From contig CAVOGE010000007.1 in assembly GCA_963695195.1 (NCBI GenBank), forward strand, positions 767,756 through 831,755: a stretch of 64,000 bases of DNA, written 5' to 3'. The notes beneath the pieces were generated by a model. That model saw only the letters and a list, made by a program, of their open reading frames with translations. It ran no database searches and had not been told where the DNA came from. Of the stretch, positions 7,816 through 53,323 are shown one piece after another. Within the stretch, counting starts at the first letter, position 1; every line of letters begins with the position of its first letter. Both the position numbers and the translations under genes were made by a program. Source of the DNA: an uncultured Chloroflexia bacterium. GTDB lineage: Bacteria > Chloroflexota > Limnocylindria > QHBO01.

Positions 7816-7830
7816 GGTGTGCGGATCTCC

Positions 7831-8369: not shown

Positions 8370-8386
8370 GGCGGGTCTCGTCGCCG

Positions 8387-10180: not shown

Positions 10181-10473
10181 CTCGGTGCGGTCACGGTGTG
10201 GACAAGCGGCTCACATCCGCGGTTCGCGCCCCGGCGGGCCGGGCGGTAATCCACACGGGGCCGACGCGGATCCCCGGTCTGTGCACTTCCCAGGCGAGGG
10301 GACCAACAGGAGCGGGCCGGTTATCCGCAGCGCACGGGAGCGCGGCGGAGCACAACAACCCACACCGTCCACAGCACTACGAGAGACGGTGACGTACAGG
10401 TATCCTTGACGAGTATCAGAGTGGTGTTGAGCCTGGTGGTGGACAAGCCGCCCCAGATGAGGTTGAGGACTCG
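10181..10473. promoter_or_regulatory. Probable oriC: DnaA-box cluster and AT-rich unwinding element between dnaA and dnaN
   Basis: 9-mers within 1-2 mismatches of TTATCCACA or its complement: TGTGGACAA (10197), TAATCCACA (10247), TTATCCGCA (10321), CCGTCCACA (10364), GGTGGACAA (about 10437). The locally AT-rich segment ggtatccttgacgagtatcagagtggtgttgag lies at 10399-10431. Confidence 0.7.
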
Positions 10474-11601: not shown

Positions 11602-11634
11602 GGGCGCGACCCGGCCGGCGCCGCGGCGGCACCG

Positions 11635-16755: not shown

Positions 16756-16887
16756 GCGACCTCCTTGCAGCGGGTCCGCCGTACCGTAGCGCAACCGCTC
16801 GGGGAGCGGGGCCGTCAAAGGGTCGATGTATACTCCGGCCCACCTTGGCCCACGACCGCAGGCGCCCCTGACCGGGTGCCCCCACCG

Positions 16888-25305: not shown

Positions 25306-25309
25306 ACCG

Positions 25310-33375: not shown

Positions 33376-33381
33376 GCTGTC

Positions 33382-34074
33382 TTACTTCTCCCTTGTCGTG
33401 TCGCCGTCGCCGGCCGCGAGCGTCTGCTCGTCGAACTGGCGCCAGACATGCCAGATGCGTTGAACCGTGGTCGCCGCCGAGAGGACGGCGATGATACCGA
33501 TCGCCACGATGAGACCGATGCCCAGGCCGAGGCCCGCGAGGGCGATGCCCGCGACGATCAGTACCAGCCGCTCGGTTCGTGGGGCGAGGCCCACCGATGC
33601 GGTCAGCCCGATCCCCTCCGCCTTGGCCCGCGTATAGCTGACCATGAAGGATCCCGCGAGGGCGGCCAGCGTCAACAGGACGGGGCCGACCGGGTCGGCC
33701 GTGGCGCGAAGGTAGTATGCGACGATCCCGCCGTAGAGGGTGGCCTCGGCGGCCCGGTCGAGCGTCGAGTCGAGGAAGCTGCCGAAGGCATTCGCGCCCC
33801 CGGTCGCGCGGGCGAGGGCACCGTCGACCGCGTCGAGCAGTGAGCCGACCACCAGGACCGCGGCCCCGGCCAACAGAAATCCCGCCGCAACGAGCACCGC
33901 GGCGACGACGACCAGGAGGAATCCGGTCACCGTCACGGTGTTCGGCGTGATTCCGAGCCGGACCGCCAACCGAACGACCGGGGCCAGCACCGCTCGGCCG
34001 ACCTCCTTGACGCGATCGGAGAGCAGTGAATCGCCTCGCCGGAGGTCTCGGGTCTGCGGATGGCTAGCCGACAT
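33382..34074 (-). CDS. pgsA: CDP-alcohol phosphatidyltransferase, phosphatidylinositol-phosphate synthase-like
   Basis: DAVDGALARATGGANAFGSFLDSTLDRAAE is the D-x2-DG-x2-AR...G-x3-D-x3-D motif. About 230 aa with 6 TMs. Start at Met75 of the six-frame ORF. Confidence 0.85.
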   Translation of the reverse strand: MSASHPQTRDLRRGDSLLSDRVKEVGRAVLAPVVRLAVRLGITPNTVTVTGFLLVVVAAVLVAAGFLLAGAAVLVVGSLLDAVDGALARATGGANAFGSFLDSTLDRAAEATLYGGIVAYYLRATADPVGPVLLTLAALAGSFMVSYTRAKAEGIGLTASVGLAPRTERLVLIVAGIALAGLGLGIGLIVAIGIIAVLSAATTVQRIWHVWRQFDEQTLAAGDGDTTREK

Positions 34075-34426
34075 CGTGCACCTCGGCTGTCGTCGAGCCG
34101 CGTGCGACACCGATGCCGGACGTGCCGCCGACAAGGCGCGCCTCGATCTCGTGGAGCTCCTCGAACGCCGCGGCCTGCAGCCGGCAGATCCTCTCGCGCC
34201 CCTGGCGTCGCGTCTCGACCAGTCCGGCCAGGCGCAGGATGCGCAGGTGCCAGCTGATGAGCGGCTGCGACAGGACAACGCGCGCGGACAGCTCATTGAC
34301 CGGCATCGGCCCGAACTCGGCGAGCAGACTGATCACACGGAGCCGAGTTTCGTCGCCCAGGGCGCGATAGAGCGTGCGCAGGCGGCGCAGGTCGCGCTCG
34401 GCATTGGTCTCAAGGGTGAGCGTCAT
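34064..34426 (-). CDS. ArsR/SmtB-family HTH transcriptional regulator heading the pgsA operon
   Basis: wHTH region ALGDETRLRVISLLAEFGPMPVNELSARVVLSQPLISWHLRILRLAGLV. No metal-site Cys. The 3' end overlaps the pgsA start. The six-frame ORF starts at TTG 34447, but ATG 34426 is more likely. Confidence 0.8.
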   Translation of the reverse strand: MTLTLETNAERDLRRLRTLYRALGDETRLRVISLLAEFGPMPVNELSARVVLSQPLISWHLRILRLAGLVETRRQGRERICRLQAAAFEELHEIEARLVGGTSGIGVARGSTTAEVHDVG

Positions 34427-38391: not shown

Positions 38392-39846
38392 CTAGAAGAG
38401 GCTCGCGACCGAGGCCTGGAGGAAGGTGAGCACCGGCTCCGGGAAGAGCCCCAGGGCCAGGACGGCGACCACCGAGATCGCCAGCGCAGCGACGCCGAGC
38501 GGCGAACGATCGATCGGTGCCGGCTCGGCCTCGGGGTCGCGCATGTACATGTAGACGATCACGCGCAGGTAGTAGAACGCGGCCAGCGCGGCATTCAGGG
38601 CGATCGCCACCGCGAGCCATGCGACGCCGGCATCGACGGTCGCGATCAGCACGTACAGCTTGGCGAAGAAGCCGACCGTCGGCGGGATGCCTGTCAGCGA
38701 CAGGAGCAGGATCGCCATCCCGGCGGCCAGCCACGGCGCGCGTGCGGCCAGGCCCGCGAAGCCGCCCAACCCGCCGAAGCGGCGCGGGTCGCGCTGCAGC
38801 ATGCCGACGACCGCGAAGGCAGCCAGGTTCATGACGCCATAGCCGAGCACGTAGAAGAGGACCGACTCGATCCCCTGCGCGCGGATGTCGGGGTTCGTCG
38901 CGTGGGCGAACGCGGCCAGGCCGGCCAGGATGTAGCCGGTGTGAGCAATGCTCGAGTAGGCGAGCATGCGCTTCACGTTGGTCTGGGTGAGCGCCACGAT
39001 GTTGCCGCCGGTCATGGTCACCACCGCCAGGATCGCCATCACACCGAACCAGTCCGCGCTCATCGGGCCGAGCCCCTCGGCGAAGAGGCGCACCAGCAGG
39101 GCAAAGGCACCGAGCTTTGGCCCAACTGAGAGAAAGCCGGTGATCGGCGTTGGCGCGCCCTGGTACGCGTCGGGGGTCCAGAAGTGGAACGGCACGGCGG
39201 CCGCCTTGAAGGTGGCGCCCACGGTCAGCAGCCCGATCGCCAGGATCCCGGCCGGGCCTGCCGCGTTCGCCAGGTCGCTCATCCCATCGATCCGCGTTGT
39301 CCCGGTCAGCCCGTACGTCCAGCTGATCCCGAAGAGCAGGATGGCGCTGGCGAACGATCCGAGCAGGAAGTACTTGAGACCGCCCTCGTTGCTGTACCGA
39401 TCGGTCTTGTGGAAGGCGGTCATCAGGTAGGCGGGCATGACCATCAGCTCGAGGCCGATGAAGAGTGTGATCAGGTCAGCGCTCGAGGCCAGCACGAACA
39501 TGCCGATCAGGCTGAAGACGAGGATCGCGTTGAACTCGCCGAGCGGCAGCCGGCGCTGCGCCAGGTAGGAGGGGGCGAAGAGCGCCGCCAGGATGCCGAT
39601 GACCACGGTCGCGGCCTTGAAGAAGACCGACAGGTCGTCGACCACGTAGAAGCCCTCGAAGATGCGGTCGTTGACGCCCCAGACCGGGATGCAGGCGGCG
39701 CCGACCAGGACAAGGCCGGCCACGGTGATGGGCGTCAGGATCCACTTGCCGCTCGGTGGCAGGAACAGGTCCACGGTGATGATCGCCAGCACCAGGAGGA
39801 CCAGGATCAGCTCGGGGAGGAGCGGGGCGAGGTCGATCAGCTGCAT
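38392..39846 (-). CDS. nuoN: NADH-quinone oxidoreductase subunit N
   Basis: 484 aa antiporter-like subunit. Last gene of the nuo operon. Confidence 0.9.
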   Translation of the reverse strand: MQLIDLAPLLPELILVLLVLAIITVDLFLPPSGKWILTPITVAGLVLVGAACIPVWGVNDRIFEGFYVVDDLSVFFKAATVVIGILAALFAPSYLAQRRLPLGEFNAILVFSLIGMFVLASSADLITLFIGLELMVMPAYLMTAFHKTDRYSNEGGLKYFLLGSFASAILLFGISWTYGLTGTTRIDGMSDLANAAGPAGILAIGLLTVGATFKAAAVPFHFWTPDAYQGAPTPITGFLSVGPKLGAFALLVRLFAEGLGPMSADWFGVMAILAVVTMTGGNIVALTQTNVKRMLAYSSIAHTGYILAGLAAFAHATNPDIRAQGIESVLFYVLGYGVMNLAAFAVVGMLQRDPRRFGGLGGFAGLAARAPWLAAGMAILLLSLTGIPPTVGFFAKLYVLIATVDAGVAWLAVAIALNAALAAFYYLRVIVYMYMRDPEAEPAPIDRSPLGVAALAISVVAVLALGLFPEPVLTFLQASVASLF

Positions 39847-39856
39847 CGGTCCGTCC

Positions 39857-41380
39857 TCACCACGGCAGGCTGAACGAGGTCAGCCCCTGCGAGGATTCGA
39901 TCGCCTCGATGATGCGATCGACCGGCCCGCTGATCGCATCGAGCACTGGTCCCGGGAAGACGCCCAGCGCGACGACCAGCACGATCAGCGGCGCCAGCGC
40001 CAGCCACTCGTTGCGGTTCATGTCCCTGAGCGACGGCCACCAGCGGCGCATCCAGTCCGAGGGAACCGCGAAGAAGACGCGCTGGAACATCCAGAGCATG
40101 TATACCGCGCTCATGATCACCACGAGCATCGTGGCGGCGGCCACCCAGCCGGAGTACTGGAACGCGCCCAGCAGGACCAGGAACTCGCCGATGAAGCCCG
40201 ACAGGCCGGGCAGGCCGATGCTGGCGAAGGTGAAGAGGCCGAAGATCGCGGCGTACTGCGGCATCCGCGCATTGAGGCCGCCCATGTGCGCGATCGCCCG
40301 GTCGTGGGTGCGCTCGTAGATCACCCCGACCAGCAGGAAGAGGGCGCCGGTGGTGATGCCGTGGCTGATCATCTGGAAGATGGCGCCCTGGAGCCCCTGG
40401 ACGTTGAAGACGAAGGCGCCCAGCGTGACGAAGCCCATGTGGCTGACCGATGAATACGCGATCAGCTTCTTCAGGTCGGGCTGCACCATGCTCACCATGG
40501 CGCCGTACAGGACCGCGATCACGGCCAGGGCGATCACGAACGGCGCAAAGCTGACCGCAGCATCGGGAAGCAGCGGCAGGGAGTAGCGCAGGAAGCCGTA
40601 GCCGCCCAGCTTCAGCAGGACGCCGGCCAGGATGATGCTGCCGGCGGTGGGCGCCTCGACGTGGGCATCGGGCAGCCAGGTGTGGAACGGCCACATCGGG
40701 ACCTTGATGGCGAACGCGAGGAAGAACGCAACGAACGCCAGCGCCTGGAGTCCGTCGGCGTAGCCGAAGCCGCGCAGCGTCTCGTAGCTGAAGGTGAACG
40801 GGTGCCCGGCCCCCGCATGCGCGATCGCCACCGCCAGGATGGCGACCAGCATCAACAGCGAGCCGACCAGGGTGTAGATCACGAACTTGACGGTGGCGTA
40901 GATTCGCCGCGGTCCGCCCCAGATGCCGATGATCAGGTACATCGGAATCAGGCTGATCTCCCAGAAGACGTAGAACAGGAAGAGGTCGAGCGAGACGAAG
41001 ACGCCGAGCATGCCGACCATCAGCAGCAGCATCGCCGCGTAGTACTCCTTGACGCGGACCCGGATCGGATCCCAGGAGTAGAAGATGCTGACCACGCTCA
41101 GGACCGTGGTGAGCAGCACCAGGACGACCGAAAGCCCGTCCACGCCGAGCGTGTAGCGCATCCCGAAGGCGGGGATCCAGGAGAGATCCTCGCGGTACTG
41201 GAACTCCGCTCCGGCGGTGCTGTAGCCGAGCAGCGCCAGGCTGAACCCGAAGCTGGCGAGCGATGCCAGCAGCGCGATCCAGCGCACGGCACGGTGGTTA
41301 TCGCCGGGGACGAGGAGCAGGACCACGACGCCGATAAGCGGCGAGAAGACGATGAGAGAGAGGATCGGCAGATCGCTCAT
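39857..41380 (-). CDS. nuoM: NADH-quinone oxidoreductase subunit M
   Basis: Start at Met58 of the six-frame ORF (MSDLPILSLIV), overlapping the nuoL stop. Typical NuoM blocks. Confidence 0.9.
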   Translation of the reverse strand: MSDLPILSLIVFSPLIGVVVLLLVPGDNHRAVRWIALLASLASFGFSLALLGYSTAGAEFQYREDLSWIPAFGMRYTLGVDGLSVVLVLLTTVLSVVSIFYSWDPIRVRVKEYYAAMLLLMVGMLGVFVSLDLFLFYVFWEISLIPMYLIIGIWGGPRRIYATVKFVIYTLVGSLLMLVAILAVAIAHAGAGHPFTFSYETLRGFGYADGLQALAFVAFFLAFAIKVPMWPFHTWLPDAHVEAPTAGSIILAGVLLKLGGYGFLRYSLPLLPDAAVSFAPFVIALAVIAVLYGAMVSMVQPDLKKLIAYSSVSHMGFVTLGAFVFNVQGLQGAIFQMISHGITTGALFLLVGVIYERTHDRAIAHMGGLNARMPQYAAIFGLFTFASIGLPGLSGFIGEFLVLLGAFQYSGWVAAATMLVVIMSAVYMLWMFQRVFFAVPSDWMRRWWPSLRDMNRNEWLALAPLIVLVVALGVFPGPVLDAISGPVDRIIEAIESSQGLTSFSLPW

Positions 41381-43608
41381 GGCCGCAGCACCAGGTAGGC
41401 GACCAGCACCAGCGCCAGGCCGGCGGCCATCCCCAGTCCGTAGTTCTCGACGCGGCCGGTCTGTGCTCGCCGCAGCAGCCCGCCGAACCGTTGGGCGATC
41501 CACCCGGCGCCGTTGACCGCGCCGTCGATCACCTTGGCGTCGAACCACCACAGGGCGTTGCCGACCAGCACGCCGCCGCGCGCCCAGACGAGGCCGTACA
41601 GGTCATCCACGTAGTACTTGTTCAGGCTGGCCGCGTACATCCCCGGTCCGAGGCCGAACGGGATGCGGACGACGAAGCGCCGCGGCGCCTCCGGATCACC
41701 GACGTACCAGCGATGCGCCAGCCAGATCCCGGCCACCCCCACCGACGCGCCGATAAGCAGCAGCAGTCCCCCGATCCCGAACAGCTCGAAGCCGTGGTGC
41801 TCGCCGGCGGCGATCGAGCCAGAAAGGATGCCGGCGCCAGCCTCCTCCGCGCCGTGGAAGACTTCCTCCAGCCAGGTGTGGATGAAGCCGCCCTCCGGAG
41901 GAAGTCCCAGGACCAGGCCGATCAGCGCGGTCGGGACGGCCAGGATGATGAGCGGCCAGACCATGGTCGGCGCCGACTCGTGAACGTGGTGCCAGGCGTC
42001 GCGCGGTCCGCGCCACGCCCCGTGGAAGGTCATGAAGATCATGCGGAAGGTGTAGAAGGCGGTCATGAAGGCGACGATCACGCCGACCGCGTAGAACAAG
42101 TAGTAGCCGCGGTTGAACGACTCGGCCAGGATCTCGTCCTTACTGAAGAATCCCGCAAAGAGCGGGATCCCGGCGAGCGCCAGCGCCCCGACCACCATCG
42201 TTCGGTAGGTCCACCTCATGCGTTCACGCAACCCGCCCATGAAGCGCATGTCCTGCTCGCCGGACGCCCCGTGGATGACCGAGCCGGAGCCCATGAAGAG
42301 GAGCCCCTTGAAGAAGCCGTGGCTGACCAGGTGGAAGATGGCCGCCACCCAGGCACCGATCCCCAGCGCGAAGAACATGTAGGCCAGCTGGCTCACCGTC
42401 GAGTAGGCGAGCACCTTCTTGATGTCGTTCTGGGTCAGCGCGATCGCGGCGGCAAAGATGGCGGTGAAGACGCCGATGCCGGCCACCACCCACATGGCGA
42501 CCGGGCTCTCCACGAAGATCGGGTTGGCGCGGGCGACCATGTAGACCCCGGCGTTGACCATCGTCGCGGCATGGATCAGCGCGCTGACCGGGGTGGGACC
42601 CTCCATCGCGTCCGGCAGCCAGACGTGCAGCGGGAACTGGGCGCTCTTGCCGACCGCGCCGGCGAAGAGGAGCAGCGCGATGACCGTCACGGCGGTCGGG
42701 TCGAGGCCGCCGATGCCGGCGAAGACCTCCTCGAAGTTGAGGGTTCCCAGCATCGTCCAGATCATCATGATCCCGAGGCCGAAGCCGAAGTCGCCGACCC
42801 GGTTGACCACGAACGCCTTCTTGGCAGCACCGGCCGCCGAGGGCTTCTTGTACCAGAAGCCGATGAGCGCGTAGCTGCACAGGCCGACCGCCTCCCAGCC
42901 GACGTACAGCATCAGGAAGTTGTCGCCCAGGATCAGCAGCAGCATGCTGAACATGAACAGGTTCAGGTAGGCGAAGAAGCGCCACAGCCCGCGGTCGCCG
43001 TCCATGTAGCCGATGCTGTAGACGTGGACCAGCAGGCCGACCGTGCTCACCACCAGGAGCAGCGCGGCGGTCAGGCCGTCAACCAAGAACGCGATCTCGA
43101 TCTGGAAGTCGCCCGACACGATCCATTCGTAGACCGAGACGTGGTACACGTTGCCGCCGAAGACCACGTTGGCGAAGACGATCATGGAAAAGGCCCAGGC
43201 GATCCCGACCAGTGCGGTCGGCACCCACCAGGACCGATAGCTCGGGCGCGGGCCGCCCTCGACCACATGCCCGGCCTGTCCAAGCCCGTCGTTCATGTCG
43301 TCAGGGATCACCCCGTCGGCTCCGCTGCTGTTGGCCAGGTCGTCCGCGTGGCCGGCGTGCGGCGAGCTGAGCGCCTGCTCCTCCTCGGACGGGATGGCGC
43401 GGAACGCGGAGTCGTCGACCTCGCCGGAATCGTGCCCATCACCGCCGTGGCCTGCGTGCCCGCCATGGTCATCGGCGTGCGCGTCGTCGCCGTGCTCATC
43501 GTGGCCATGCGACGGAACGCGATCCAGCCGCGAACCTGCGAGCACGGCGAACAGGAAGCCGGCCAGCGGCAGCGCCGGGATGAGGGCGATCAACAGCTCG
43601 GTCGACAT
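41377..43608 (-). CDS. nuoL: NADH-quinone oxidoreductase subunit L with an about 110-aa His/Asp-rich insertion after TM1
   Basis: 743 aa against about 630 typical. Conserved NuoL core and a long C-terminal helix region. The insert is RVPSHGHDEHGDDAHADDHGGHAGHGGDGHDSG... Confidence 0.9.
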   Translation of the reverse strand: MSTELLIALIPALPLAGFLFAVLAGSRLDRVPSHGHDEHGDDAHADDHGGHAGHGGDGHDSGEVDDSAFRAIPSEEEQALSSPHAGHADDLANSSGADGVIPDDMNDGLGQAGHVVEGGPRPSYRSWWVPTALVGIAWAFSMIVFANVVFGGNVYHVSVYEWIVSGDFQIEIAFLVDGLTAALLLVVSTVGLLVHVYSIGYMDGDRGLWRFFAYLNLFMFSMLLLILGDNFLMLYVGWEAVGLCSYALIGFWYKKPSAAGAAKKAFVVNRVGDFGFGLGIMMIWTMLGTLNFEEVFAGIGGLDPTAVTVIALLLFAGAVGKSAQFPLHVWLPDAMEGPTPVSALIHAATMVNAGVYMVARANPIFVESPVAMWVVAGIGVFTAIFAAAIALTQNDIKKVLAYSTVSQLAYMFFALGIGAWVAAIFHLVSHGFFKGLLFMGSGSVIHGASGEQDMRFMGGLRERMRWTYRTMVVGALALAGIPLFAGFFSKDEILAESFNRGYYLFYAVGVIVAFMTAFYTFRMIFMTFHGAWRGPRDAWHHVHESAPTMVWPLIILAVPTALIGLVLGLPPEGGFIHTWLEEVFHGAEEAGAGILSGSIAAGEHHGFELFGIGGLLLLIGASVGVAGIWLAHRWYVGDPEAPRRFVVRIPFGLGPGMYAASLNKYYVDDLYGLVWARGGVLVGNALWWFDAKVIDGAVNGAGWIAQRFGGLLRRAQTGRVENYGLGMAAGLALVLVAYLVLRP

Positions 43609-43612
43609 CGGT

Positions 43613-43918
43613 CTATTCCTTCAGGTCCGCGTACTGGTCAACCTCGGCCGTCTTGCGCGTGCGGATGATGGCGATCACCAGCGCAAGCCCGACCGTGGCC
43701 TCGGCAGCGGCCACCGCCATGACCAGCAGGGCGAAGATGGCGCCCGCAGGTGAGCCGTCGGGCGCGTAGGCGTTGAATGCGACCAGCGACAGGTTGACCG
43801 CGTTGAGCATCAGCTCGATCGAGATCAGCATCAGGATCGCGTTCCGACGCGCCATGAAGCCAAAGGCGCCGATCCCGAACAGGATCGCGGAGACGAGGAG
43901 GTAGCCCTGCAGCCCCAT
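43613..43918 (-). CDS. nuoK: NADH-quinone oxidoreductase subunit K
   Basis: 101 aa: MGLQGYLLVSAILFGIGAFGFMARRNAILMLISIELMLNAVNL... Confidence 0.9.
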   Translation of the reverse strand: MGLQGYLLVSAILFGIGAFGFMARRNAILMLISIELMLNAVNLSLVAFNAYAPDGSPAGAIFALLVMAVAAAEATVGLALVIAIIRTRKTAEVDQYADLKE

Positions 43919-44427
43919 CAGTTGGCCCCCTCGTCGTCTTCGGGGCGGCGGGCGATGTAGATGGCACCGATGATCGCCACCAGCAGCAGCAGGCTGAGGA
44001 TCTCGAAGGGCAGTGCATAGTCGGTGAAGAGCGCGGTGGCGATCGTCTCGACGCTCACCGCGGTGACCTCCAGGGCGCCGTGCCAATCGGTCTGGGTGAC
44101 GGTGTAGCCGATCAACCCCACGATGATCAGCGCCACCAGCCCCGCGACCCAGACCTGCGGATGGAACGGGCGCGGCAGGTTCGCGTCGCCCGCCTGGGTG
44201 AGCATGATCGCGAACAGGATCAGGACGCTGATGGCGCCGAGGTAGATGAGCACCTGGGCGGCAGCCACGATGGGGGCGCCCAGCAGCGCATACATCCCCG
44301 CCAGCGAGCCGAAGCAGACCATCATCGCCACGGCGCTGTGGATGATGTTGCGCAGCGTGACGACCAGCAGTCCGGCACCGATGACGCCGACGGCGAGCAG
44401 GATGAAGAGGACGCCGGAGAGGTCCAG
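43918..44427 (-). CDS. nuoJ: NADH-quinone oxidoreductase subunit J (probable CTG start)
   Basis: The conserved N-terminus LFILLAVGVIGAGLLVVTLRNIIHSA lies upstream of the first ATG, GTG or TTG. The only in-frame candidate after the stop is CTG 44425-44427, 8 nt after AGGAG. Confidence 0.7.
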   Translation of the reverse strand: MDLSGVLFILLAVGVIGAGLLVVTLRNIIHSAVAMMVCFGSLAGMYALLGAPIVAAAQVLIYLGAISVLILFAIMLTQAGDANLPRPFHPQVWVAGLVALIIVGLIGYTVTQTDWHGALEVTAVSVETIATALFTDYALPFEILSLLLLVAIIGAIYIARRPEDDEGAN

Positions 44428-44753
44428 GGCTGCGGCTCCTGCTGGGTGATTGAGCGCTCAAACGGCCTCGCCGATCAGAGATCCGAGGCCGTATCCGATT
44501 CTAGCGCAGCCCGAGTTCGGCTTACGCCGTTGCCAGGGGGCCTCGCGGCAGGCTCCGGGCGAAATGCTCAGCATCTGAGCATATGGACAGGGATATGCCT
44601 CAAATGCCCTCGATTCGTCGCCGTTCCGCTCAGCTGCCGAGCATTCGGCCGGCATTCCACACCATCTCGGCTCTTGTGCTCAGATGCTGAGCAGCCATCC
44701 CTTCAGAGGCGAGCATCACCAGCCGAGGAAATGGTTGCCCACCTCATCAACTC

Positions 44754-47142
44754 CTACCTGGTGGGACGCTCCCGGTCGGACATCTCGAGGATGTCGAGCA
44801 TGGGCAGATCGCGCTGGTATTCGCTGAACTCGAACTCCGGTCCGCAGCGCAGGGCGTCGTACGGGCAGGCATCGGCGCAGATGCCACAGAAGATGCAGCG
44901 GCTCATGTCGAGCTGGTAGGTCTCGAGGGTGCGCGGCCGCGGCATCAGGGCGCCGACCGGGCAGGTCTCCGCGCAGCGGCCGCACGACACGCACGGCGTC
45001 TCGTTGAGGGAGACGAAGTCCGCGGTGGTGACGAGTGAGTCGAAGCCCTTGCCGATGAAGTCGTAGCAGCCCGCACCCACGACCTCCTTGCAGACCTGCG
45101 CGCAGCGACCGCAGTCGATGCAGCGGGAGTAGTCGCGCAGGATGAAGGAGTGGGTCTCGTCGCGGCCGTAGCCGTGGTTGACGCCGACGTACGGGTTGTC
45201 CTGGATCGAGCGCTCGTCGATCGCCATGTTGAGCGTCGTCTCGTACTCGATCGCCGCCTCGCGCAGGTCGCAATGGCCGATCGCCTCGCAGGTGCACTGC
45301 AGGCAGCGCCCCGCCTCGGCCATCGCCTGGTCGCCGGTGTAGCCGTGCTCGTACTCGCCGAAGCCACCCTTGCGCTCGTCGGCGCCGAGCTTGCCCATCA
45401 CCGCGCGCGGCTCCTTCACGTCGTCGGTGAACGGCACGATCGTCAGGAAGGAGGGCTGCGGCTCGGACACGATGCGGCGCACCTGCGGGTCGTCGAGGTC
45501 GTGGCCGCGCAGCCAGTAGTCGATCGCGTAGCTGGCGCGCCTCCCCTCGCCGATCGCCTCGACCACGGTCTGGGCGCCGTTGCGCACGTCGCCGGAAGCG
45601 AAGACACGCGGGACGCCGGTGCGGAAGATGTCGTCCTCGGCGACCAGGGTGCCGCGCCGGCTCACCTCCAGCTGCGAGCGGATCTCGTCCGGCTCGCTGT
45701 CGACCCAGGAGAGCTCAGGGCCCTGGCCGATGGCGCCGAGCACGGTGTCGCACGCCACGACGAACTCGGTGCCGGGCATCGGCTCCGGGCGGCGGCGACC
45801 CTTCTCGTCGGGCGCGCCGAGGCGCATCCGCTGGAACTCGACACCGGTCACCTTGTTGGCCGCATCGGTCACGACGCGGACCGGCGCCGCCTGGAAGATG
45901 ACCCGCGCCCCCTCCTCGATCGCCTCGTGCACCTCGTCGGCGGCAGGCATGTCCTTGAGGTCGCGCCGGTAGACGAGCGTCACCTCCGCGGCGGACTGGC
46001 GGATGCTGGTGCGCGTGCAGTCGATGGCGGTGAATCCTCCGCCGATCACGACCACCCGCGCCCCCTTCAACGCCGGGATCGGCACGCCGCGAGAGCTGTT
46101 GTAGAGGTTCTCGAGGGCATTGACCACGCCGTCGGCGTCCTCGCCGGGGATCCCCATCTCGTTGGATTTGTAGCAACCGATGCCGACGTAGACCGCGTCA
46201 TAGCCCTGCTCCAGGAGGTCGGCCACGTGGAAGTCCTTGCCGAGCCGCATGTTCGGGACGGAAGGTGGCGCCCAGCTCCCAGACGTGGTTCAGCTCGCGA
46301 TCCATCCAGGCCTTCGGCAGGCGGTACTCCGGGATCCCGTAGCGGAGCATGCCGCCCTGCTCCGGATCGGCCTCGTACACGTCGCAGTGATGACCGCGCA
46401 ACTGGAGGTAGTAGGCGGCGGACATCCCTGCCGGACCTGACCCGATGACGGCCACGCGCCGGCCGGAATCGGTCTCCTTCGGCCACGGCGTCGGTGCGGG
46501 GGCGTCCACCTCCAGCACCCGGTCGGCGCAGTAGCGGTGGCTGTCGCGGATGGCGATGGCGGTGTCCACCTCCTCGCGACGGCAGTGCGTCTCGCACGGG
46601 GCGGGGCAGACGCGACCCAGGATCGCCGGGAAGGGGAGCGAGCGCTTGAGGATGCGCGTCGCCTCCTCCCAGTTGCCGAGCGTGTTCTGCTTGAGATAGC
46701 CGGGGATGTCGACCCGGGTCGGGCACTTGAACTGGCACGGCGGCAGGCAGTACGCGTCGTGGTCGGAGAAGATCAACTCCAGGACCATCCGCCGGTTCTC
46801 GACCAAGCGCTCGGAGTGGGTGGTGATGACCATCCCCGGCTCGACGAAGGTGCCGCAGGAGATTGGCGTGCTCTCCTGGCCCTCGACCTCGACGACACAG
46901 ATTCGGCAGGCGCCGAAGGCGGCCAGTTTCGGCTCGTAGCAGAGGGTCGGGACGTCGATGCCCAGGACACGGCAGGCCTGCAGGATGGTCTGGCCTTCCT
47001 CGGCCTCGACCTGCTCGCCGTTGATGGTGACGCTCACCTTGGCCGAGCCGGGCACCATTGGCCAGAGGGGAGCGTAGTCCTCCGCGCGGAGGGCCACGCC
47101 CTTCCCGTTCCCCTTCCCGTTGCCGTTGGTGACGAAGCTCAT
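44754..47142 (-). pseudogene. Frameshifted mosaic FeS-flavoprotein gene: NuoG-type 2Fe-2S domain + GltD/NfnB-like FAD-NAD(P)H oxidoreductase + NuoG-type 4Fe-4S domain + NuoI (TYKY) C-terminal half. Six-frame ORFs 46198..47142 and 44754..46250.
   Basis: N-terminus VSVTINGEQVEAEEGQTILQACRVLGIDVPTLCYEPKLAAFGACRIC is a NuoG-like 2Fe-2S. GltD cluster motifs CLPPCQFKCPTRVDIPGYL and ILGRVCPAPCETHC, then VAVIGSGPAGMSAAYYL. After a +1 shift near 46250 come RVVVIGGGFTAIDC and ASGD. Then HSFILRDY...CIDCGRCAQVC...CVSCGRCAETCPVGAL (NuoG-type 4Fe-4S). Then SRCIFCGICADACPYDALRCGPEFEFSEYQRDL (NuoI C-terminal block). Confidence 0.6.
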
Positions 47143-47158
47143 GGCCGGTGCATCCTAC

Positions 47159-48523
47159 CTATGAGGCCGCCGGCCCGACGCCGGAGAGCGGCGCGAGGAG
47201 CGGTGCGACGTCGATGCCGCGGCACGAGCCGGCCGGGCACTCGCCGCGCTCGGCGTGGGCGCGGTACTCGTCCTCGAAGCGGTCGAGCGTGGTGAGCATC
47301 GGTCCGGGCGCACGCGATTCGAGGTGGCAGAGCGCGGTATCGGTCATCTTGCGCGACAGGTCGCGGAGCAGCAGCAGATCGTTCGGCCGGGGAGTCGCGG
47401 CAAGGATCCGGTCCAGCGTCTCGACCAGGCGCCTGGTGCCGATCCGGCACGGAACCGCCTTGCCGCAGGCCTCACGCGCCGAGTAGTCGAGGAAGAAGCG
47501 CGCGGTATCGACCATGCAGGTGTCGCTGTCGGTCACGAGGACCTGGCCGAGACCGATGCCCGCTCCCGCCTTTCGGAGTGGTTCGAAGTCATAGGGCGTG
47601 TCCAGCTCGCCGGCGCTGAGTGCGCCGCCGCCCGGCCCGCCGACGAAGACCGCCTTGGTCGTCCCGGAGCCGCCACCGGCGATCTTCAGCAGCGCGGAGA
47701 GCGGTGAACCGAGCGGCACCTCGGCCAGCCCGGGGTTGGCCACGCGGCCGTAGATGCTGACCAGTTTGGTGCCGGGGCTTGCCGCCGACCCGACAGCGCG
47801 GAACTCGTCGTTGCCGTGCCGCAGGATCCAGGCGGCGTGTGCCAGGGTCTCGGCGTTCTGGACGGTGGTCGGTGCGCCGCCGAGCCCGCGCTCGGTCGGG
47901 TACGGCGGCCGGATGACCGGCATGCCCCGATCACCCGCGAGCGCTGCCAGGAGTGCCGTCTCCTCGCCAGCGACCAGGGCAGCCGCACCCTCCCAGACGC
48001 TCACCGTGCAGGAGAAGTCGGTGCCCAGTACCAGGTAGCCGGCAAGGCGCGCCGCATCCGCCTCGGCCACGGCCGCGCGCAGTCGCTCGGTGGCCAGCGT
48101 CCAGTCGCGGCGCACTGCGATGATCGCCTCGGACGCGCCGGTCGCAAATGCGGCGATCATCAGCCCCTCGAGGACCAGGTGCGGGTTGCCCTCGGCCAGC
48201 GCGCGATCCCCGAGTGCCGTCGGGTCGGCGCCGATCAGGTTGGCGACCACCACCTTTCGGCCGCCGGCTGCGTCGCGCGCGGCTCGCCACTTCGCCGCCG
48301 TCGGGTACCCGCCGCCGCCGCGCCCGCGAAGCCCCGCCGCCTCGATCTGCGCCAGGGTCATCTCCGGGCCGAGCGTCTCGACTGCTCGCGTCAGTCCCTC
48401 GTAGGCGTGTTGCTTTCTCGCCCCGTCCAGGGTGACGCGGGACCCGTCGCCGACGCCCTTCAGCAGCCGGTGCTCGCCGCCAGGGAGGATGCGGATCTGT
48501 CCTGAGAGCGCCTGTCCGGTCAC
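47159..48523 (-). CDS. nuoF: NADH dehydrogenase flavoprotein subunit NuoF-like
   Basis: GLRGRGGGGYPTAAKW is the FMN/NADH site. The C-terminal 4Fe-4S Cys cluster ACGKAVPCRIG...LCHLESRAPGP is present. Confidence 0.85.
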   Translation of the reverse strand: MTGQALSGQIRILPGGEHRLLKGVGDGSRVTLDGARKQHAYEGLTRAVETLGPEMTLAQIEAAGLRGRGGGGYPTAAKWRAARDAAGGRKVVVANLIGADPTALGDRALAEGNPHLVLEGLMIAAFATGASEAIIAVRRDWTLATERLRAAVAEADAARLAGYLVLGTDFSCTVSVWEGAAALVAGEETALLAALAGDRGMPVIRPPYPTERGLGGAPTTVQNAETLAHAAWILRHGNDEFRAVGSAASPGTKLVSIYGRVANPGLAEVPLGSPLSALLKIAGGGSGTTKAVFVGGPGGGALSAGELDTPYDFEPLRKAGAGIGLGQVLVTDSDTCMVDTARFFLDYSAREACGKAVPCRIGTRRLVETLDRILAATPRPNDLLLLRDLSRKMTDTALCHLESRAPGPMLTTLDRFEDEYRAHAERGECPAGSCRGIDVAPLLAPLSGVGPAAS

Positions 48524-49353
48524 GCCGGGCGCCCCGCTGTGGTCGCCGCCCGACGTCGCTCGCCGACCAGGTGGCGCGCCTGATCCGCGGTGAGCGGGCC
48601 GTAGACCAGCGTGTCGATCCGAATCGCCGGCGCGAGCGTCCCCGCGGCGACCGAATCGCTCGTCTCCAGGCTGAAGGCGCCGTCGTCGGTCGATTCGCCG
48701 GGGGCGATCCCCAACTCCTCGGAGAGTGCCGCGAGCAGCGCCTCGCCGCCGGCGAAACGACAGGCAGTGCAGTTGCAGACGGTGATCACGTGCCCTTCGC
48801 CGGGGAGCAGCCGGAAGCCGCCCAGCCCGGCGGCGCCGAAGACCTGCGCCCAGTGGATCGACATGCTGTCACTCACCTGGCGCAGGGCACGCTCAGGGAG
48901 ATAGCCGTAGCGCTCCTGGACCGCGGAAAAGATCGCCACGAGCGACTCGGGGCGCCCGCCGAAGCCGTCGATGACGCCACGCATCCAGCCGGCGTCGATC
49001 TCCTCGTCCCAGCGCGCCACGTTGCGCATCGGGGCCGCGGCCAGGCCCGCGCGCCGGTAGGCGTTGGGATCCTTGCGCTCGTCGTAGATCTCCGGCATGC
49101 CGTAGCGGATCCGGTTCCCCTCCGAGTCGAAGCCGCTCATGTCGATCGCCTCGACCGGGCAGACCTGGGCGCACTGGAAGCAGACCTCGCACTTGTGCTC
49201 GCCGAACGGATCGTAGATCAGGTCGAGGCGGCCACGCCATCGGTCGGGCATGGTCGGGCGCTCTTCGGGGTACTGGCTGGTGACCTTGGGCGCCCAGTAG
49301 TTGCGCATGGTCACGCGCATCCCCTTCAGGATGCCGGCTCCCGGGATCCGCAT
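48520..49353 (-). CDS. Fusion protein: NuoI (TYKY) N-terminal half with one 4Fe-4S motif, joined to a NuoE-like 2Fe-2S thioredoxin-fold domain
   Basis: N-terminus KVTSQYPEERPTMPDRWRGRLDLIYDPFGEHKCEVCFQCAQVCPVEAI matches the first half of TYKY, and the second CxxCxxCxxxCP is absent. C-terminus VAIFSAVQERYGYLPERALRQVS...ITVCNCTACRFAGGEAL...LETSDSVAAGTLAPA matches NuoE. Confidence 0.75.
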   Translation of the reverse strand: MRIPGAGILKGMRVTMRNYWAPKVTSQYPEERPTMPDRWRGRLDLIYDPFGEHKCEVCFQCAQVCPVEAIDMSGFDSEGNRIRYGMPEIYDERKDPNAYRRAGLAAAPMRNVARWDEEIDAGWMRGVIDGFGGRPESLVAIFSAVQERYGYLPERALRQVSDSMSIHWAQVFGAAGLGGFRLLPGEGHVITVCNCTACRFAGGEALLAALSEELGIAPGESTDDGAFSLETSDSVAAGTLAPAIRIDTLVYGPLTADQARHLVGERRRAATTAGRPA

Positions 49354-49368
49354 CGGTCTGCCGCCCTC

Positions 49369-50379
49369 CTACAGGTTCAGCCAGACGACCACGCCGGCCG
49401 TCACGATCAGGTTGAGCATTGCCAGTGGCAAGAGCACCTTCCAGGCCATCCCCATCAGCTGGTCGACGCGAACGCGCGGGAGGGTGGCGCGCAGCCAGAC
49501 CGCCACGAACACGAAGAGGTAGCTCTTCAGGAAGAACCAGAAGATGCCGTACAGGGTGCCGCCGAATCCTTCGAACTGAGCGGGGAATGGCCAGGGGGCC
49601 AGCCAGCCGCCGAAGAAGAGGGCGACCATGATCCCGCTCATGATGAAGAGCGCCACATATTCGGCGAAGAAGAAGAAGCCGAAGCGCATCCCGGAGTATT
49701 CCGTGAAGGGTCCGGCGACCAGCTCGCTGTCGGCCTCGATCATGTCAAACGGGGTGCGGTTGATCTCGGCGAGCGACGCGATGTAGAAGATCCCCCAGCC
49801 GACCGGCTGCCAGAGGAGCATCCAGCCGTGGGCGAGCTGCCATTCGATCACTTCGCGGAAGTTGAGCGTGCCACCCAGGACCACCACGCCCACCACCGAG
49901 AGGGTCAGCGGGATCTCGTAGCTGACCATCTGGGCCGCACTTCGCAGGCCACCCAGCAGCGAGTACTTGTTGTAGCTGGCCCAACCAGCAATCAGCATGC
50001 CCACGACCGAGAGGCCGATGATGGCGAAGAAGTAGACGATCCCGATGCTGAAGTCGGCCGCGATGGCTCCCGGCGCCCACGGGATGACGAGCATGCTCAT
50101 GGCCGCCGCCATGTAGACCATCCACGGTGCCATGGTGAAGGTCGTCCGATCCGCCTGGTCGGGCATGTGGTCTTCCTTGGCAAGGAACTTGAAGCCGTGG
50201 ATCGTGCTCTGGAACATGCCCCACGGCCCGATCCGGTTCGGGCCGTAGCGCAGCTGCATCTGGGCGATCACCTTGAGCTCCATCTGGATCACCACGAAGG
50301 CGGTCGGCACGGTAAGCAGCAGCAACAGGGTCGTGGCCAGCAGGAAGCGGCCGACACCCAGCAGCAGGTCCAGATCCAT
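49369..50379 (-). CDS. nuoH: NADH-quinone oxidoreductase subunit H
   Basis: 336 aa with 8 TMs. Conserved blocks QMQLRYGPNRIGPWG and EYSGMRFGFFFFAEY. Confidence 0.92.
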   Translation of the reverse strand: MDLDLLLGVGRFLLATTLLLLLTVPTAFVVIQMELKVIAQMQLRYGPNRIGPWGMFQSTIHGFKFLAKEDHMPDQADRTTFTMAPWMVYMAAAMSMLVIPWAPGAIAADFSIGIVYFFAIIGLSVVGMLIAGWASYNKYSLLGGLRSAAQMVSYEIPLTLSVVGVVVLGGTLNFREVIEWQLAHGWMLLWQPVGWGIFYIASLAEINRTPFDMIEADSELVAGPFTEYSGMRFGFFFFAEYVALFIMSGIMVALFFGGWLAPWPFPAQFEGFGGTLYGIFWFFLKSYLFVFVAVWLRATLPRVRVDQLMGMAWKVLLPLAMLNLIVTAGVVVWLNL

Positions 50380-51654
50380 CTACTTGTCCACCCCGCCCAT
50401 CACCGGATCGAAGCTGGCCATCACCGCCATCGTGTCGGCGATCAGGCGGCCCGGCATCAGCTTGGGGATCGCCTGCAGGCTGATGAAACTGGGGTCGCGC
50501 ATGCGGAACCGATACGGGTTCGGTCCGCCGTCGCTGATGGCGTAGACGCTGTACAGGCCGCGCGGCGATTCGACCGCAGCGTAGGCGCGTCCGGGCTTGG
50601 GGCGAATGATGCCGGGCACCTGCGCCTGGACCGGGCCGTGGGGCATCTTGTCCACGATCTGATCGATCAGGTGGATGCTCTGCTTGAGCTCCGCGACGCG
50701 CTGGAGGTAACGCGAGTAGACGTCGCCTCCCGACTGCGTGATCACGTCGAACTCGAGCTCGGGGTAGATCGAGTACGGATGTGCCTTGCGGACGTCGAAC
50801 GGCACGCCTGAGGCGCGCAGGCTTGGCCCCGTGACGCCCAGGGCGATCGCCTCGGCGCCTGACAGGACGCCCATCCCGATGGTGCGACCGCGGAAGATCT
50901 CGTTGTCGGTCATGATCCGCTCGTTCATCTCAATCGTTTTCAGGACACCGGCCCGCCAGGTTCCAAGGCGCGAGAAGAACTCGTCGTTGGCGTCGAAGTT
51001 CACGCCGCCGACGCGGAAGAAGTTGAACAGCATCCGCTGGCCGCTGATGGCCGACAGCAGGTCGACCACCTCGTCGCGATTGATGAACCCGTACAGGATC
51101 GGGGTCAGGCCGCCCATGTCGAGCGCCTGGAAGCCCATCATCAGCCCATGGCTGAAGACGCGGTTCAGCTCCACGACCAACGCGCGGATGTACTCGGCGC
51201 GCCTGGGCGCCTTGATGCCGTAGAGCTTCTCGAAGGCGATCGCCGGCGCGTGCTCGTTGTGCATCGCCGACAGGTAGTCCATCGGGTCGACGTAGGTCAT
51301 CACCGTTGTGTACGTGGCGTTCTCGCACAGCTTCTCGATGCCACGGTGCAGGTACCCCAGCACCGGGTCGATATCGACCACCACCTCGCCCCGGACCTTG
51401 ACCACCAGGCGCATGACGCCGTGGGTGGAGGGGTGCTGGGGACCCATGTTGACGAGCATCTCGCCGTCGCCAAGGGTGTAGACCTCGCGCTCGCGCTCGG
51501 TCTGCGGCGGCCGCTCCGGCAGGCCGACCGACTCGAACCCGGCGTATTCCCCTCCGCTCGCGGGTGGCCGCGCGAGGCCCGCTGCGGCCCGCAGGCGCGT
51601 CTCCTCGGCGCGCTCGAGGTCGAGAGGATCGGGGATGCGCACCTCGGAGGTCAC
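50380..51654 (-). CDS. nuoD: NADH-quinone oxidoreductase subunit D
   Basis: GTG start overlaps the nuoC stop (GTGA). MGPQHPSTHGVMRLVV and the C-terminal RMRDPSF region are present. Confidence 0.92.
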   Translation of the reverse strand: MTSEVRIPDPLDLERAEETRLRAAAGLARPPASGGEYAGFESVGLPERPPQTEREREVYTLGDGEMLVNMGPQHPSTHGVMRLVVKVRGEVVVDIDPVLGYLHRGIEKLCENATYTTVMTYVDPMDYLSAMHNEHAPAIAFEKLYGIKAPRRAEYIRALVVELNRVFSHGLMMGFQALDMGGLTPILYGFINRDEVVDLLSAISGQRMLFNFFRVGGVNFDANDEFFSRLGTWRAGVLKTIEMNERIMTDNEIFRGRTIGMGVLSGAEAIALGVTGPSLRASGVPFDVRKAHPYSIYPELEFDVITQSGGDVYSRYLQRVAELKQSIHLIDQIVDKMPHGPVQAQVPGIIRPKPGRAYAAVESPRGLYSVYAISDGGPNPYRFRMRDPSFISLQAIPKLMPGRLIADTMAVMASFDPVMGGVDK

Positions 51655-52214
51655 GATTCCGCCTCGGACGAGGTCGCGGCCTCCACGAAGTTGGACAGAT
51701 CCCAGGTCTCGGGACGCTCCAGCGGGACGACGCCGGCGGCGGACGAGTCGGCCGCGTCGTCGGGCAGCAGGAAGTCCTTGCGCTGCGGGAAGCTGCGGTA
51801 GTCGGGCGACATGTAGATCCGCCGCAGGTCGCGGCTGCCGTCGAAGACGATGCCCATCATGTCGTACATCTCGCGCTCGTGAAAGCCGGCCCCCTCCCAC
51901 AGGCCGGTGATGGTGGGGAGGTGCGGCTCTGTGCGATCGACGCGCGCCCGCACGCGGAGCCACGACGGATGCAGATCGGAATACAGGTGATAGACCACCT
52001 CGAAGTGCTCGGTCGGCCCGTAGTCCACTGCCGCCGCATCGGCGAGCATGGAGAAGTTGAGCTCCGGGTCGTCGCGGAGCCGCTCGAGCACCTCCACGTT
52101 GCGCGCTCCGTCGATGCGCACCTCGACCGTGTCCTCATCGGTCCAGACGGTCGGGGCGAGGTCTGCGAATCGGTCGAGGAGCAGGCGCACCAGCGCGCCG
52201 GCCGGCGCGCTCAG
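51651..52214 (-). CDS. nuoC: NADH-quinone oxidoreductase subunit C (start uncertain)
   Basis: [22 protein letters not shown] and [24 protein letters not shown] blocks. CTG 52212-52214 lies 6 nt after GGAAGGAGA. An alternative GTG 52188-52190 has no SD. Confidence 0.8.
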
Positions 52215-52825
52215 GTCACGTCTCCTTCCCAGTTGCTTCGCTGCGGGCCGCGGTCGACATACGTCGGCCACTCGCCGCGTCGCTGCAGGACCAGCTCGCG
52301 GAGCCGCAGCATCCCATAGATCAGCCCCTCCGGGCGTGGCGGGCAGCCGGGCACGTACACGTCGACCGGCATCAGCCGATCGACGCCCTGCACCACGCTG
52401 TAGCTGCGCTTGAAGCGGCCGCCCGAGGTCGTGCAGGTGCCCATCGCCACGCACCACTTGGGCTCGGGCATCTGCTCCCAGAGACGTACCAGCGGGCCCG
52501 CCATCTTGGTGGTCAGCGTGCCAGCCACGATCAGCACATCCGCCTGGCGGGGGCTGGCGCGCATCGGGAACATGCCGAAGCGATCGATGTCGTTCTTGCT
52601 GGTGGCGGTGCTCATCATCTCGATGGCGCAACAGGAGAGTCCCGACAGGAGCGGCCAGAGCGAGTTGGCGCGGATCAGGTCGAGCACGATGTCCGCCCGG
52701 GTGGGGATCACCTCGAGCAGGCCGTGGAAGCCGCCGCGCGGGTGCTCGGCCATCCCGAATTCGCGGAAGTCGTCGTCCCCCGCGAGGTCGGGGATGACGA
52801 TGGGGCCGTTGGTCTCTAGCGCCAT
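52211..52825 (-). CDS. nuoB: NADH-quinone oxidoreductase subunit B
   Basis: N2-cluster Cys motifs [23 protein letters not shown] and VPGCPPRPE are present. Confidence 0.92.
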
Positions 52826-53175
52826 GTCAGGTCACCCTTGCGCCAGGCGTACAGCTCGCCGAAGAGGAGGATCACCAGGAAGACGCCGATCAGCACGATC
52901 CCCTGGACGGCCATCGCTCGCACGGTGATCGCCCACAGGTAGACGAACACGATCTCCACGTCGAAGGCCACAAAGAGGAGCGCGTACAGGTAGAAGGCGA
53001 GCCCGAAGCGCGACCAGGTGTCGCCGATGGTGTCGATCCCGCACTCGTACGGCAGGCCCTTCTGCGGACGACGACGTCGATGGGTGATCAGCCACGAGAA
53101 CAGGATCGTGGCGAACACGAAGACCGATGTCGCAATGCCGAACCCGATGACGTAGAGCAGTCCGGTCTGATCCAT
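52816..53175 (-). CDS. nuoA: NADH-quinone oxidoreductase subunit A
   Basis: 119 aa, 3 TMs, PYECGID motif. Confidence 0.88.
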
Positions 53176-53323
53176 GCCAGCTCCGTGGGTGCTCGGTGCG
53201 CAGGACCGATGCGTCCCACGCGATTGATGCTCGTCTCAGGCCGCCCTCGCAGACGCGCGAGCCGCCTCGGAAAACAGTCTAGCAGCCGATCCGGGGAGGC
53301 GGCAGACGCTGCGAGGCGAGGCG

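Follow-up and report, generated by a model that had tools for sequence, protein, structure and literature searches.

The large subunit StnC of Sporomusa ovata StnABC (structures 8OH5 and 8OH9) is that of a Bfu-type transhydrogenase dependent on reduced nicotinamide adenine dinucleotide phosphate (NADPH), and its counterpart NfnA has been solved from Caldicellulosiruptor saccharolyticus NfnABC (9BOV and 9BP5; PMC11829005) and from an archaeon (9N5U). Residues 683-1172 of StnC form an FdhF/molybdopterin-like domain, which takes up about 470 residues in NfnA and StnC and is needed for tetramer formation, and in Stn the branch towards this FdhF-like domain is a dead end. Here, we describe a mosaic gene of related layout in the complex I operon of an uncultured Chloroflexia bacterium, located in a window (the whole stretch of DNA analysed) of 64,000 nucleotides (nt) from contig CAVOGE010000007.1. 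The mosaic of GltD within NuoG is already known from the NfnA/StnC layout. What sets this locus apart is that a three-gene Nfn/Stn-like module is nested, with both ends in frame, inside nuoI of the complex I operon. The deposited sequence shows the mosaic gene as two open reading frames (ORFs) of 314 and 498 amino acids (aa), and these are two pieces of one gene, cut by one surplus base.

One gene in two frames

The G+C content of the window is 69%, and the mosaic gene lies on the minus strand. A preliminary description had reported two ORFs overlapping by 53 nt, and both were found again, on the minus strand, with the break between them resolved as follows:

46198..47142, minus strand: upstream ORF piece, 314 aa, whose true coding part reaches about 46258
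44754..46250, minus strand: downstream ORF, 498 aa, overlapping the 314-aa ORF by 53 nt
44754..46256, minus strand: downstream piece of the mosaic gene, which encodes residues 296-795 of the repaired protein and includes the stop codon
46255..46258, minus strand: frameshift site with one surplus base, TTC CG[T] CCC GAA C

The upstream frame ends in ...NHVWELGATFR followed by PEHAARQGLPRGRPPGAGL and a stop, and these last 19 codons of the 314-aa ORF are out-of-frame read-through, unmatched in relatives. The downstream frame, which is +1 relative to the upstream frame, reads ...PNMRLGKDFHVADLLEQGYDAVYVGIGC... across the same region. Deletion of the T at 46258, or of a single C within 46255-46257, brings F-R-P-N-M-R-L-G-K-D-F back in frame, and ELGATFR joined to PNMRLGKDF gives a repaired protein of 795 aa. 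The break had been placed earlier at ATFR/LGKDF, which was right to within 4 residues; the alignment of relatives locates it at 46255-46258, and the surplus base, in column 884 of the nucleotide alignment, could be the T at 46258 or a C from the CCC run. That a single GltD-like domain continues over both ORFs, as had been proposed, is borne out by the gltD family profile TIGR01318, which spans residues 134-545 across the junction in one stretch (331 bits), and by the solved NfnA and StnC chains, which align through the junction with no gap. The motifs are divided between the frames as first noted, with the Rossmann motif VAVIGSGPAGMSAAYYL and MLRYGIPEYRLPK in the upstream frame, and LGKDFHVADLLEQGYDAVYVGIGC and RVVVIGGGFTAIDC in the downstream frame.

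The order of parts in the mosaic gene is a NuoG-type 2Fe-2S domain, GltD, NuoG-type 4Fe-4S clusters, and a NuoI-like end:

46813..47043, minus strand: N-terminal [2Fe-2S] domain of NuoG/HydA type, residues 34-110 (Pfam Fer2_4, E 1.3e-21; aligns with NfnA residues 4-80)
45492..46794, minus strand: GltD/NfnL-like module, residues about 117-550, which holds the frameshift (Pfam Fer4_20 and Pyr_redox_2; TIGR01318 at 134-545; alignment with 9bov_A and 8oh5_C)
44937..45344, minus strand: NuoG-type iron-sulfur (Fe-S) region, residues about 600-735 (C-x2-C-x-C-x5-C, CIDCGRCAQVC and CVSCGRCAETCP)
44757..44933, minus strand: C-terminal half of NuoI, residues 737-795 (CIFCGICADACP and an EFEFSEY tail; TIGR01971 positions 71-112, 57.2 bits; TYKY/NuoI structures)

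To evaluate conservation, we compared the gene with a related set of 82 loci (L001-L082), reaching down to 60% protein identity. The GltD/NfnL-like module carries the motifs H-x3-C-x3-C-x3-CP and CPAPCETHC, the GxGxxG motif for flavin adenine dinucleotide (FAD), and the NADPH site GGGFTAID...YRR. Its score of 331 bits lies below the TIGR01318 cut-off of 483; the domain is embedded in a larger protein and is not a stand-alone protein of ∼470 aa, and there is no gltB in the operon. The NuoG equivalog TIGR01973 matches at 98.6 bits (cut-off 470) and over the N-terminal 95 residues only, so that the protein is not matched as a full-length NuoG. All 12 cysteines of the NuoG-type Fe-S region are invariant in the 82 loci. 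After these clusters, a 10-residue linker leads into ...ETYQLDMSRCIFCGICADACPYDALRCGPEFEFSEY..., which corresponds to NuoI profile positions 71-112 and contains four cysteines that are likewise invariant in the 82 loci. The collinear alignment with NfnA and StnC confirms the earlier placement of the GltD module between 2Fe-2S and 4Fe-4S domains of NuoG type. The accompanying proposal that this module replaces the molybdopterin-like C-terminus was wrong, because NfnA and StnC hold both the GltD insertion and that domain; in the window it is the C-terminal half of NuoI that takes the domain's place. An AlphaFold2 model of an intact orthologue (P0001, from a 36-sequence alignment) was too poor for fold comparison or to tell whether the NuoI half folds, with a mean predicted local distance difference test score of 52 and values below 50 over residues 559-794.

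Length varies at both ends of the protein. The N-terminus (47080-47142, minus strand) has a short GNGKGNGKG repeat with in-frame length differences of 3 or 6 nt between close relatives, and the subfamily at 60% identity has a C-terminal extension of 60-90 residues that includes GNG repeats.

A NuoI fold divided between two proteins

The earlier reading of the locus had missed the split of NuoI, whose N-terminal half sits on the NuoE-like protein, so that an E-F-G-like module is nested in nuoI. The protein that carries this half is encoded directly after nuoH:

48520..49353, minus strand: fusion protein of 277 aa, NuoI N-terminal half plus NuoE/NfnC-like domain
49093-49332, minus strand: NuoI N-terminal half, residues 8-87 (CEVCFQCAQVCP; TIGR01971 positions 1-76, 52.6 bits)
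48559-49008, minus strand: NuoE/NfnC-like thioredoxin-type domain, residues 116-265 (Pfam 2Fe-2S_thioredx; NuoE/HoxE profiles; best solved matches 9bov_C and 8oh5_A)

The N-terminal half contains ...QYPEERP...CEVCFQCAQVCPVEAI..., and when it was joined artificially to the C-terminal half, the product scored 108 bits over NuoI positions 1-112 of 121, close below the TIGR01971 cut-off of 113 bits, which neither half reaches. Alignment of the joined halves with TYKY/NuoI structures extends through the entire core. NuoI is cut at the loop that links its two CxxCxxCxxxCP motifs, none of the eight cluster cysteines varies, and about 1,470 residues of other proteins are encoded between the halves. 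In the NuoI fold, each cluster takes three cysteines from one motif and one from the other. Because each cluster draws on both motifs, both NuoI clusters would need both polypeptides. The strand preceding the second motif is kept on both sides of the split (GNRIRYGMPEIY in the N-terminal half, 49093-49130; RTLETYQLDMSRC in the C-terminal half, 44900-44933; both minus strand), and this doubling resembles a short duplication stemming from the insertion event.

The operon as a whole, assigned from Pfam domains and ORFs, reads:

38392..53235, minus strand: whole complex I operon
52816-53235, minus strand: nuoA
52211-52831, minus strand: nuoB
51651 to about 52205, minus strand: nuoC
50380 to about 51654, minus strand: nuoD
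49369-50379, minus strand: nuoH
47159-48523, minus strand: F-like gene for a NuoF/NfnB-like flavoprotein of 454 aa (Pfam Complex1_51K, SLBB and NADH_4Fe-4S)
44754-47142, minus strand: mosaic gene
43918 to about 44457, minus strand: nuoJ
43613-43918, minus strand: nuoK
41377-43608, minus strand: nuoL
39857-41602, minus strand: nuoM
38392-39879, minus strand: nuoN

The gene order is thus nuoA-B-C-D-H-[I(N)+E]-[F]-[G/GltD+I(C)]-J-K-L-M-N, with no nuoEFG between nuoD and nuoH. The two halves of nuoI occupy the position expected for that gene, the N-terminal half starting right after nuoH and the C-terminal half ending before nuoJ. The genes nuoC and nuoD are not fused: the 584-aa open frame encodes NuoD only, and nuoC overlaps it as a gene of its own in a different frame. 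Between the mosaic gene and nuoJ lies a spacer (44458-44753) that is about 300 nt long in the window and ranges from 174 to 7626 nt among relatives, so the operon is often interrupted exactly there; in L001, the spacer holds four unrelated genes on the opposite strand (a glyoxalase, VanZ, and others).

The same gene order was found in L001 (91% identity), in L082 (63%) and in a further locus, L083, as well as across GTDB species representatives labelled Candidatus Limnocylindria or Chloroflexota. Of 73 loci, 66 encode the NuoI N-terminal half and the E-like domain in a single frame, and of 82 loci, 79 have a large protein that extends into the NuoI half. When 1.8 billion representatives were searched, the next tier consisted of NfnA/StnC-type proteins of 1000-1270 aa with about 40% identity, which match the query only to about position 457-465, short of the NuoI half. 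The exception was P0279 (816 aa, 41% identity), which has the same fusion and whose contigs show the same nested operon; its relatives form more than 100 clusters labelled Thermoleophilia or Actinobacteria. Two JGI metagenome contigs, L083 (1466-12432) and L084, carry the nuoI-nested operon of this Thermoleophilia type.

The partner subunits in the window differ from those of the Bfu enzymes. Canonical ligands of the [B1-FMN-C1] unit (FMN, flavin mononucleotide) are CxxCxxC...C in the F-like and Cx4C...CxxxC in the E-like subunit, and this flavin-plus-two-cluster set is not preserved here. The 454-aa F-like protein covers residues 107-532 of the 584 in NfnB (9bov_B) at 393 bits, compared with at most 257 bits to any complex I NuoF, and it has neither the N-terminal thioredoxin-like domain nor the C-terminal 2x[4Fe-4S] ferredoxin-reducing domain of the BfuABC core. 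Its N3/B1 motif is C-G-K-A-V-P-C, the second cysteine being alanine in 79 of 80 loci, and the NADEGDPGAF loop reads NL(M/I)GADP(T/S)AL across the clade (NLMGADPTAL in the window form). The E-like part, closest to NfnC/StnA among solved structures, keeps C193, C195 and C198 at its [2Fe-2S] site (C-x-C-x2-C), and D/E, A and G replace the second cysteine pair clade-wide. The GltD part keeps every motif. By these motifs, the Limnocylindria form is a reduced version. In L083, by comparison, the E-like part has the four canonical cysteines, and its F-like partner, at 638 aa, is of full BfuB type and has the N-terminal thioredoxin-like domain, CGKCVPC, and the C-terminal 2x[4Fe-4S] domain. The Thermoleophilia form is possibly the less reduced, ancestral-like one.

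The surplus base and the rest of the window

To place the break in context, we compared the mosaic gene with its relatives, of which the nearest, L002, is 92% identical in nucleotides and 97% in amino acids, and L001, L003, L004 and L005 are 87-90% identical in nucleotides. Against these closest relatives (L001-L005), exactly one indel is not divisible by three, and it is the surplus base. None of the 82 loci has the extra base; every relative is one base shorter there, encoding F-(R/K)-P-N-M, and all 81 aligned loci read TTC (AAG/CGC/CGG/AGG) CC(G/C) AAC ATG at the site. L082 encodes an intact protein of 849 aa, and L081 is the sole relative with a frame change in the mosaic gene, elsewhere, near residue 689. 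The search for intact orthologues that had been recommended earlier returned more than 100 clusters of 794-890 aa in the protein database, each an intact single ORF. Neither the surplus-base allele nor the same strain was found in two scans of JGI metagenomes.

The ratio of nonsynonymous to synonymous substitution rates (dN/dS), measured against L002, is 0.039 for the part upstream of the break and 0.068 for the part downstream, with similarly low values against three other relatives; both pieces are under strong purifying selection. All 20 Fe-S cysteines after the break are intact, as are all remaining operon genes. In the 21.7 kb of the window covered by orthologues, the break in the mosaic gene is the sole within-gene frame change, and the Pfam domains of about 45 other window ORFs are whole within single frames. 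Because of the low dN/dS, the intact Fe-S cysteines and the intact operon genes, the break is either unreal or very recent. Three causes had been offered for it, of which a sequencing or assembly error fits best; long-term decay finds no support, given a dN/dS of 0.04-0.07 on both sides and the intact rest of the operon, nor does a programmed frameshift, given the lack of the shift site in all 82 relatives.

Most likely, then, the surplus base is a consensus indel of a long-read metagenome assembly and probably no fresh mutation, so that an intact protein would be made in the real organism. The contig from which the window's proteins are recorded is 1,867,267 bp long, which makes a long-read assembly likely, and in the public record of this contig the mosaic gene is split by gene calling. 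With the window proteins as references against all related loci, we counted 66 within-gene frame breaks in 389 kb of the same genes from 24 Microflora Danica loci, as opposed to 1 in 649 kb from the other 58 loci. The Microflora Danica genomes come from Nanopore reads only, with Flye as assembler and a single round of Medaka polishing (PMC12313526). The 66 breaks are spread over L004, L018, L022, L026, L031, L038, L043, L057, L061, L066, L067, L076, L078 and L081, with a maximum of 17 in one locus (L057, 22 kb), and two 50%-cluster representatives of the mosaic protein (P0196 and P0301) are frameshifted translations. Single-base frame breaks are thus a common artefact where genomes of this clade come from long reads, and the remaining genomes are essentially free of them. 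An error is further supported by what the break would do, since it would remove the C-terminal half of NuoI and so disable an otherwise intact operon.

Several observations weigh against an assembly error. The deposited consensus alone cannot separate an error from a very recent real mutation. Inspection of the homopolymer context, as had been suggested, showed that the break lies at a CCC run, or at a T between G and CCC, with no long homopolymer. Long homopolymers are the classic context of Nanopore errors. Among the relatives, other long contigs contain no breaks, and contig size by itself is no proof of an error-prone technology. Finally, the window carries just one break in 64 kb.

Some of these points speak for a genuine, very recent inactivating insertion, by which the gene and complex I would be a fresh pseudogene, or the consensus would have taken a minority allele. 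The base does stand in the deposited sequence, in a context unlike a typical long-homopolymer error site, and the absence of frame errors elsewhere in the window makes the assembly look accurate. However, no further decay accompanies the break (dN/dS is low on both sides, there are no extra stops, and the 20 Fe-S cysteines that follow are intact), the other operon genes are all preserved, and the allele occurs in none of the 82 relatives and in neither of the two metagenome scans. Losing the NuoI C-terminal half would also disable an otherwise preserved 14-kb operon, and we consider such an insertion unlikely.

A programmed +1 ribosomal frameshift is very improbable; it would require peptidyl-tRNA-Pro to move from CCC to CCG with the rare codon GAA in the A site. 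Such a slip at CCC-G would yield exactly the conserved F-R-P-N-M peptide (...FRPNMRLGKDF..., in a full-length protein), and GAA is the minor Glu codon here (18 versus 118 GAG). Yet programmed sites are conserved and the relatives are all plainly in frame, the A-site codon is not a stop, no Shine-Dalgarno-like stimulator lies within 10 nt (a GGAG lies ∼26 nt upstream), and the truncated 314-aa product has no apparent benefit. Transcriptional slippage was rejected for want of an A or T run. Two independent genes, forming a naturally split subunit of 314 aa and 498 aa with the second starting at ATG 46250, can scarcely be credited even though that in-frame ATG is suitably placed, the overlap is of a kind sometimes seen in coupled genes, and the public record has both called as separate proteins, because the cut would fall inside the FAD/NADPH-binding fold, after the first Rossmann unit, where the gltD profile and solved structures run through, no ribosome-binding site precedes the ATG, the last 19 codons of the upstream ORF are out of frame and unmatched in relatives, and the relatives have a single ORF. 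A scan of 44300-47400 for promoters and terminators gave no hits on the strand of the gene and no internal promoter from which the downstream piece could be transcribed.

The frameshift itself is ordinary, and its only importance is as a warning that single-base frame breaks are numerous in long-read metagenome genomes of this clade and cause gene callers to split essential genes.

Away from the operon, the window contains:

3585-3949, plus strand: transfer-messenger RNA (tmRNA) gene (tag GTNSYALAA)
6682-12798: chromosomal origin gene set yidC (minus strand), dnaA, dnaN and recF, adjoining the tmRNA gene
16600-21576, plus strand: ORF of 1658 aa, in which only a C-terminal protein-O-mannosyltransferase (PMT) region is recognisable and the first ∼1000 residues have no family match
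25301-28322, plus strand: three consecutive paralogous ORFs, each with a C-terminal GNAT acetyltransferase domain
28319-34332, minus strand: lipid gene cluster with a GT4 glycosyltransferase, a PHP-associated domain protein, two LpxL-type acyltransferases, myo-inositol-1-phosphate synthase and a CDP-alcohol phosphatidyltransferase

The origin gene set indicates that the window adjoins a replication origin, and the gene set of the lipid cluster resembles that of actinobacterial phosphatidylinositol-mannoside synthesis.

Predicted function and comparison with known systems

All functional statements that follow are drawn from sequence. The two fusion proteins would together rebuild the two-cluster fold of NuoI, with an NADPH/FAD site and an NADH/FMN-type subunit predicted to be docked onto the NuoB/D/H quinone module of the proton-pumping complex I. 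NADPH would reduce the FAD of the GltD-like domain, and electrons would pass via the two clusters of that domain into the NuoG-type chain, as in Stn and Nfn. Where Stn has its dead-end branch, the mosaic polypeptide runs into the NuoI half, which would offer a path onward, and from the two NuoI clusters electrons would reach cluster N2 of NuoB and then quinone, as in complex I.

The F-like subunit may offer an NADH/FMN site, in which case the complex would act as a dual NAD(P)H:quinone oxidoreductase and provide an internal route from one nucleotide pool to the other. Alternatively, given its changed ligands, the F-like subunit may be mainly structural. Lacking the ferredoxin domain and with non-canonical ligands, the window form is unlikely to carry out classical Bfu bifurcation to ferredoxin, which would be possible in the Thermoleophilia form. 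The input module looks as if it had been recruited separately from the canonical N-module, because the best solved matches are NfnABC/StnABC and there is no nuoEFG between nuoD and nuoH.

Taken together, these considerations lead to a joint reading that we regard as evenly balanced between right and wrong. In this reading, the locus would represent an undescribed class of complex I, widespread in soil Chloroflexota (Limnocylindria) and Actinomycetota (Thermoleophilia), in which an 11-subunit-type operon gained its input module independently of nuoEFG, through an in-frame NfnABC/StnABC (Bfu) cassette in nuoI. The NuoI fold would be shared by two fusion proteins, and NADPH/FAD entry, besides or instead of NADH/FMN, would make the complex a proton-pumping NADPH:quinone oxidoreductase; the Thermoleophilia form, with its complete bifurcating core and ferredoxin domain, would be a membrane-coupled bifurcating or confurcating enzyme. 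Such a class would be a second, independent way to attach an NAD(P)H-oxidising module to the complex I core, which bears on the question of how the N-module was recruited, and a natural case of a two-cluster ferredoxin fold split over two polypeptides. In abundant soil bacteria, NADPH is then predicted to feed directly into a proton-pumping respiratory complex, and the Thermoleophilia form with its complete Bfu core would tie flavin-based bifurcation to a quinone-reducing, proton-pumping membrane arm.

In the literature, we found no description of an FdhF-like domain replaced by half of NuoI, of a split NuoI, or of a module nested in a nuo operon, a weak negative because most subscription journals lay outside the search; complex I with a nested nuoI is apparently undescribed. 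The resemblance of the mosaic protein to NfnA and StnC is nonetheless close. Its residues 34-755/760 are collinear with residues 2-700 of those proteins (9bov_A, E 5e-165; 8oh5_C, E 8e-146; also 9n5u_A), over the [2Fe-2S] domain, the inserted GltD/NfnL-like FAD-NADPH domain with two [4Fe-4S] clusters, and the NuoG-type clusters, with GxGxxG and YRR kept. The partner genes also stand in the same order (E-like, F-like, large subunit), each with its best solved match in Nfn/Stn. In contrast, the FdhF/molybdopterin-like domain is absent, as the mosaic protein ends at 795 and the match stops at ∼700 of 1172-1178 aa, and the large subunit instead ends in half of NuoI. The F-like partner is without both terminal domains and has alanine for a B1/N3 cysteine, the E-like second cysteine pair is lost clade-wide, and the window genes lie inside a complex I operon rather than in that of a soluble enzyme.

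Compared with NuoI/Nqo9/TYKY, the connecting subunit of complex I with two [4Fe-4S] clusters, the window operon has the same position between nuoH and nuoJ, and the joined halves span the core with the eight cluster cysteines, but the fold is divided between two polypeptides. With NuoE-NuoF-NuoG, the N-module that oxidises NADH in canonical 14-subunit complex I, the module shares the same three folds and the N-terminal NuoG-type clusters, and it probably has the same electron-input role on top of NuoI. It differs from them in that its genes are not between nuoD and nuoH, its proteins are nearer to the Bfu family than to complex I subunits, and it has an extra NADPH/FAD domain and no molybdopterin-like domain. 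Finally, the nearest published arrangement found is that of Mbx-like operons, in which a GltD-related flavoprotein replaces NuoI in the hydrogenase-derived Mbx complex (Degli Esposti, 2015; PMC4758237), and there, as in the window, a GltD-type NAD(P)H flavoprotein is tied to a complex I-like membrane module; the window operon, in contrast, keeps NuoI, in split form, and carries NuoE-, NuoF- and NuoG-like parts in a complete nuoA-N operon.

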